A stretch of 64,000 bases of DNA from assembly GCF_058153355.1 (NCBI RefSeq), contig NZ_CM177019.1; one strand, written 5' to 3'. The notes beneath the pieces were generated by a model. That model was not told the DNA's origin, did not search any database, and saw only the letters and a list, made by a program, of their open reading frames with translations. How positions within the stretch are numbered: the first letter of the stretch is position 1; every line of letters begins with the position of its first letter. This document shows, in pieces, positions 38,920 through 40,648 of the stretch. The translations under genes were made by a program, and so were the position numbers.

Positions 38920-40420
<1,501 letters not shown>

Positions 40421-40433
40421 TGTTGACTCCGAA

Positions 40434-40453
40434 TGCTGGTTATCTATCCAGTG
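40434..40453 (-). promoter_or_regulatory. Probable LexA (SOS) box upstream of cho
   Basis: Minus strand CACTGGATAGATAACCAGCA, variant of CTG-N10-CAG SOS box, 14 nt upstream of cho start. Confidence 0.45.
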
Positions 40454-40570
40454 TAACAGGCGGGGAGCGATTAAAAAAGAGGCGGGTCGATGACAAAGGT
40501 TACACCATGAGACGTGCTACGCCTGTCAGGCCTATTCGACTCCTGCAATGTATTGAATTTGCATAGTTTT

Positions 40571-40604
40571 GTAGGTCGAATAAGGCGTTCACGCCGCATC
40601 CGGC
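40571..40604 (-). repeat. REP element
   Basis: Minus strand GCCGGATGCGGCGTGAACGCCTTATTCGACCTAC between cho and nadE. Confidence 0.6.
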
Positions 40605-40648
40605 GTGAACAAAGTACTCTTTTTCGCACAAACCAAATGTGCAAATTA

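Follow-up and report, generated by a model that had tools for sequence, protein, structure and literature searches.

The LexA operator (SOS box) of Escherichia coli cho and its conservation among Enterobacteriaceae

The 20-mer CACTGGATAGATAACCAGCA, located at 40453..40434 on the minus strand of the window (the whole 64-kb stretch of DNA analysed here), was identified with high confidence as the single LexA operator of E. coli cho, a classical member of the SOS regulon that would be repressed by promoter occlusion and derepressed upon DNA damage. The source of the window is E. coli, for which the cho operator is already known; it is a textbook SOS operator, real, conserved, and ordinary, and the significance of finding it is small beyond correct annotation. 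The site serves as a case of a real, moderately degenerate LexA box that is recognizable from sequence alone. The gain lies in the comparative data. Across Enterobacteriaceae, they yield a phylogenetic footprint that covers the operator and, with it, the GTG start of cho, its Shine-Dalgarno sequence, and a likely extended −10 element.

The 20-mer occurred exactly once in the 64-kb window. Its surroundings on the minus strand read ...cctgt TA CACTGGATAGATAACCAGCA ttcGGAGtcaaca GTG gta cgg..., in which the 13 nt of ttcGGAGtcaaca separate the box from the GTG start codon of cho at 40420..40418. This spacer contains a GGAG Shine-Dalgarno sequence (40427..40430, minus strand), which 77 of the 78 aligned sequences carry 6–7 nt ahead of the start codon. 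The CTG arm (40451..40449) and the CAG arm (40438..40436) are exactly 10 bp apart, as is required for the class of LexA operators with the consensus TACTG(TA)5CAGTA. Against the 20-nt consensus TACTGTATATATATACAGTA, six mismatches were counted at positions 1, 6, 10, 14, 15, and 19, all of which are low-information positions; such mismatches are typical of real operators, for example, that of ruvA. The initial annotation had proposed a LexA operator at 40434..40453 (minus strand) just before the GTG of cho, and this is borne out by its position and exact sequence match, its matrix score, the published motif, and its conservation. It had also called the box a variant one, a term that rightly reflects the six mismatches but is overstated in that every one of them falls where the motif carries little information.

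The gene that follows the box is cho (ydjQ), which encodes the 295-residue excinuclease Cho from a GTG start (39533..40420, minus strand). This open reading frame matched the Cho equivalog model NF007833 of NCBIfam with 576.6 bits (cut-off 367) over residues 1–287 of 295, as compared with at most 84 bits for the UvrC models. RefSeq annotates it as cho in E. coli genomes, and the K-12 gene also starts with GTG. The next gene upstream is nadE (40649..41476, minus strand), assigned from its open reading frame and annotation, which lies on the same strand at a distance of 228 nt; the 3′ end and terminator of nadE leave limited room for a cho promoter. In K-12 MG1655, the gene order is chbBCARF-osmE-nadE-cho-ves-spy, with cho at 1823515..1824402. 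Matches to the 401 nt surrounding the site were present in 5425 of 5426 complete E. coli genomes, where the annotated features beneath the matches were cho and nadE.

For scoring the box, 17 published E. coli operators, not including that of cho, were combined into a symmetric LexA matrix; they were taken from the LexA sites of 18 UV-induced genes listed in PMC3009722 (Table 4). The initial annotation had suggested position weight matrix scoring and named a poor score as evidence against the site. The cho box gave 19.4 bits with the cho-excluded matrix, the highest value among approximately 64,000 positions on both strands of the window, followed by matches of 15.5 and 13.2 bits. When all 18 published operators were scored by leaving one out, the cho box ranked 11th, between sulA and lexA. 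A heterology index of approximately 7.9 was evaluated in the manner of Berg–von Hippel and Lewis from the same counts as the matrix, and the published value is 7.5 (PMC11228462, Table 1, quoting Courcelle et al. 2001). The threshold quoted in PMC11002266 is a heterology index below 15; both the index and the matrix score of the cho box fall within the range of experimentally accepted operators. A matrix scan of the nadE–cho spacer detected no second LexA box, the next best match there having −5 bits.

Comparison with the published cho (ydjQ) operator, the other check that had been proposed, recovered the same site. The box and its flanks (TA...TTC) are identical to the cho motif TACACTGGATAGATAACCAGCATTC in Table 4 of PMC3009722, a list of LexA motifs that precede annotated MG1655 genes induced by UV, cho among them. 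In the review PMC6590174, cho (ydjQ) is entered under "known SOS box", with Fernandez De Henestrosa et al. 2000 and Courcelle et al. 2001 given as sources. In the alignment with K-12 MG1655, the box corresponds to 1823482–1823501 and is identical, so that the published K-12 operator has the same 20-mer, the same flanks, and the same 13-nt distance to the GTG, with no difference inside the operator. A single base distinguishes the present strain from K-12; it is the C at 40465 (T in K-12), which stands 11 nt before the box in an unconserved spacer column, and the alignment is otherwise identical from a conserved T-run through the start codon.

Two further operators are close relatives of the cho box. 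The ruvA box CGCTGGATATCTATCCAGCA shares its CTGG...CCAGCA arms (G at position 6, C at 15 and 19), and the two are close in matrix score (18.5 bits for ruvA versus 19.4 bits for cho) and in published heterology index (7.6 versus 7.5). It controls another gene, however, and its positions 1–2 and central bases are unlike those of the cho box. The ydjQ (cho) box of Salmonella enterica occupies the orthologous place before the GTG of a damage-induced gene and keeps the ACTGGAT...ATAACCAG pattern of the E. coli box. The boxes of the S. enterica subspecies, TACTGGATGAATAACCAGTT, are nearer to the consensus than the E. coli cho box and gave 21.9 bits. The published heterology indices are 6.69 for the Typhimurium ydjQ box (PMC8072944) and 7.5 for E. 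coli cho (PMC11228462).

Conservation of the box was examined by scanning for the Cho protein in one genome per species, which gave 80 loci, 76 of them with enough upstream sequence to be tested. In all 76, the best matrix match within 300 nt upstream was located 11–16 nt before the cho start, with scores between 15.3 and 24.9 bits, and the orthologous start codon was nearly always GTG. These loci span more than 20 enterobacterial genera, including Escherichia, Salmonella, Citrobacter, Enterobacter, Klebsiella, Raoultella, Kosakonia, Leclercia, Lelliottia, Phytobacter, Franconibacter, Pluralibacter, Cedecea, and Buttiauxella. An alignment of 78 distinct orthologous upstream regions revealed that box positions 2–5 (ACTG) and 16–18 (CAG) are invariant (78/78), the arms reaching 2.0 bits, and position 20 was A in 76 sequences. 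The centre of the box (positions 10–11) held only 0.15–0.45 bits, and the spacer columns on both sides (−14 to −6 and +29 to +32, relative to box position 1) held 0.06–0.30 bits. Because substitutions have saturated the neutral columns and left the LexA contact triplets untouched, the relatedness of the sequences is controlled for. The per-position conservation of the orthologous boxes also correlated with the information content of the independent LexA matrix (Spearman 0.67, p = 0.001). The cho box is hence a conserved island in variable surroundings across Enterobacteriaceae.

The site is nearly universal in E. coli: of 5426 genomes, 5411 matched a 60-mer spanning the box at 95% identity or above. 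Six other Escherichia sequences were aligned to the window. Four of them came from the E. coli genome collection, namely K-12, two of the 60-mer matches of lowest identity, and one of the most divergent 401-nt matches; the remaining two were divergent loci from the species-representative scan. The sole change inside the box among these six sequences was C to T at position 1 (40453), which was present in E. coli strains GCM39-10-2-9-3-1 and CP52E (TACTGG...). The T lifts the LexA score from 19.4 to 22.0 bits. T also occupies position 1 in roughly half of the other enterobacterial genera; this strain and K-12 have C.

The same alignment pointed to a promoter element that runs into the box. A candidate extended −10 element, TGtTACACT, was assigned from conservation to 40450..40458 of the minus strand, with its putative TG at 40458–40457 and its hexamer TACACT at 40455–40450, the hexamer and the box overlapping by four bases (box positions 1–4). 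The bases CTGnTA directly before the box, combined with box positions 1–4, make up TGnTA(C/T)ACT, which was found in 75 of the 78 orthologous regions, and the longer pattern TGnTAnACTG was likewise kept in 75/78. Three bases of this element, G(−3), T(−1), and A(0), are invariant in the 78-sequence alignment; LexA alone does not explain them, because they lie outside its 20-nt motif. TGnTA(C/T)ACT is therefore likely to represent an extended −10 promoter element. A consensus scan for sigma-70 promoters and terminators between 40300 and 40750 gave no hit, with no promoter passing the 9-of-12 threshold, so the proposal is based on conservation and not on a consensus match. The transcription start of cho would be located 5–9 nt (approximately 7 nt) after the hexamer, that is, inside the box at 40441..40445 (minus strand), which corresponds to approximately 1823492 in K-12. 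The tables of Kim et al. 2012 contain no transcription start site for b1741, which fits a repressed gene and is uninformative on the position of the start.

A conserved T-run (cTTTTTTaa) was further aligned at −24 to −19 (40473..40478, minus strand), with an invariant T at −24 and at least 81% T at −23 to −20 among the 78 sequences. It sits 17 nt upstream of the −10 hexamer, in the location of a weak −35 element, so that the −35 position holds only TTTTTT. If the hexamer is read rightly, this would fit a promoter that depends on its extended −10. In many genera, a GC-rich hairpin precedes the T-run, as in Kosakonia (the arrangement is another one in Klebsiella), and often no more than about 50 nt separate the nadE stop codon from the box. 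On account of this short distance, the hairpin and T-run were read as the nadE terminator, the T-run being its tail in most genera. The E. coli hairpin before the T-run did not fold significantly (z = −1.2). A promoter further upstream, which the initial annotation had named as grounds for refutation, is unlikely, because no promoter-like element is conserved other than the one that runs into the box.

These features allow an interlocked arrangement to be drawn, to which we assign about even chances. An extended −10 element would abut directly on the T-tract of the nadE terminator and have four bases in common with the LexA box, whose position 1 would be the third base of the hexamer. The C/T alternation at this base would then tune promoter strength and repressor affinity together; the T that raises the LexA score also improves the −10 hexamer (TATACT). 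The conserved extended −10 interlocked with the box, along with the C/T polymorphism at the common base, is perhaps not explicit in the literature. The point is a minor one, and the interlock may already stand in curated databases.

Occlusion of the promoter by the repressor is the classical arrangement for SOS genes. At cho, the predicted positions of the promoter and the transcription start would make it the mode of repression as well, since the box overlaps the last four bases of the extended −10 and the predicted start, and LexA bound there should exclude RNA polymerase. In the undamaged cell, a LexA dimer would occupy both the CTG and CAG half-sites and thereby cover the −10 hexamer and the start site, so that RNA polymerase would be kept from the only promoter-like element between the nadE terminator and cho. 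Upon DNA damage, RecA filaments on single-stranded DNA would stimulate the self-cleavage of LexA, leaving the operator empty. The derepressed gene would then be transcribed with a leader of approximately 25 nt bearing the GGAG ribosome-binding site, and its product, the Cho nuclease, would make the 3′ incision in nucleotide excision repair that depends on UvrAB.

Fernandez De Henestrosa et al. 2000 reportedly gave the first demonstration that LexA binds at ydjQ and that DNA damage induces the gene, and the first demonstration of the nuclease activity of Cho is said to be that of Moolenaar et al. in 2002. PMC518961 describes the Cho work of Moolenaar et al. 2002 second-hand. For the damage inducibility and LexA dependence of cho, we refer to published expression data. 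The gene was UV-induced in MG1655 (PMC3009722), and its mRNA increased after ciprofloxacin with a log2 fold change of up to approximately 1.5 (PMC11002266, Table 1). Its expression after AZT was 5.1-fold lower in the non-cleavable lexA3 mutant (PMC11228462). In the same study, cho was not induced by AZT (0.77-fold), and the authors mark it as an exception (PMC11228462). The Salmonella ydjQ gene, whose box has the heterology index of 6.69, was increased 3.3-fold with nalidixic acid (PMC8072944, Table 1).

A different mode of repression was also considered, in which the site is a true LexA operator that represses chiefly as a roadblock, stopping transcription that arrives from nadE or from a more distant upstream promoter. 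Such read-through is conceivable in E. coli, where nadE lies on the same strand 228 nt from cho, where the T-run follows a weak hairpin (z = −1.2), and where the consensus scan gave no canonical promoter. Against this, TGnTA(C/T)ACT is kept in 75 of 78 upstream regions, including bases outside the LexA motif, and many genera possess a clear terminator hairpin and T-run just upstream. In addition, nadE is absent from the SOS-gene tables of PMC6590174 and PMC11228462. We therefore consider a roadblock improbable; it would in any case leave the identity of the site as a LexA operator unchanged.

The possibility that the box is a fortuitous CTG-N10-CAG palindrome without regulatory function is effectively refuted. 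The initial annotation had drawn attention to the CTG/CAG arms and the AT-rich core, both of which are present, but the arms alone do not discriminate. The bare CTG-N10-CAG pattern occurred in 32 copies in the window, as compared with 12.2 expected from dinucleotide shuffles, an approximately 2.6-fold excess that likely arises because E. coli coding sequence is rich in CTG/CAG and CTGG/CCAG. This is a warning against calling SOS boxes from the arms only, and together with the six mismatches to the 20-nt consensus, it is what would favour a coincidence. The full motif is far rarer. The exact probability of at least 19.4 bits is 1.6e-7 per position, from which approximately 0.01 occurrences are expected per 64 kb and approximately 0.7 per 4.6-Mb genome, and this score was attained in 2 of 200 first-order Markov simulations of the window. 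Coincidence is equally at odds with arms that, in every one of the 76 loci tested, stay invariant and keep a near-fixed distance to the start codon while the neighbouring columns are saturated with change, and with the published damage inducibility and LexA dependence of cho.

Equally negligible is the notion that the box is an RNA hairpin in the cho leader or the site of another DNA-binding protein: the arms can pair as a 4-bp stem, but the predicted fold of the box region was no better than shuffles (−5.7 kcal/mol, z = −0.27), and the hairpin was rejected. The arms are invariant and do not covary while the loop is variable, the 5′ arm would be untranscribed if the start lies inside the box, and the conservation profile agrees with the LexA matrix.

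Several other elements were observed in the intergenic region and elsewhere in the window. Between nadE and cho, approximately 75 nt upstream of the LexA box, the Rfam family ES036 (CssrF) sRNA (RF02751) matched 40528–40570 on the minus strand with 42.9 bits (gathering score 37.6), beside REP-like repeats. One REP-like element, GCCGGATGCGGCGTGAACGCCTTATTCGACCTAC, lies at approximately 40575–40610 (minus strand), between the nadE stop codon and the T-run, and part of the 401-nt query repeats elsewhere in E. coli genomes, at up to four places per genome. Most other genera have the terminator hairpin and T-run directly 3′ of nadE. The Escherichia spacer looks as if it was expanded by the insertion of repeats, with a hairpin before the T-run that appears degenerate.

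Approximately 13 kb from the cho box, two overlapping LexA-matrix matches were located at 53532–53569 on the minus strand, TACTGTACGTATCGACAGTT (15.5 bits) and CACTGTATAAAAATCCTATA (13.2 bits), which are the second and third best of the window. They directly precede the GTG of an open reading frame of the YdjM family (52927..53529, minus strand; Pfam PF04307, 123.7 bits), and the pair is the known double SOS box of ydjM, a gene listed as a classical SOS gene with a heterology index of 9.0 (PMC11228462). The ydjM operator belongs to the same regulon as that of cho and likewise stands directly before a GTG start, but it consists of two overlapping, weaker boxes, whereas cho has one. A complete group II intron was also found at 17800–20106 of the minus strand. 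Rfam matches to group-II-D1D4-7 (19959–20106, 112.5 bits) and to domain V/VI of Intron_gpII (17800–17876, 65.5 bits) flank its open reading frame (17881..19623, minus strand), which encodes 580 residues with RVT_N, RVT_1, GIIM maturase, and HNH domains.
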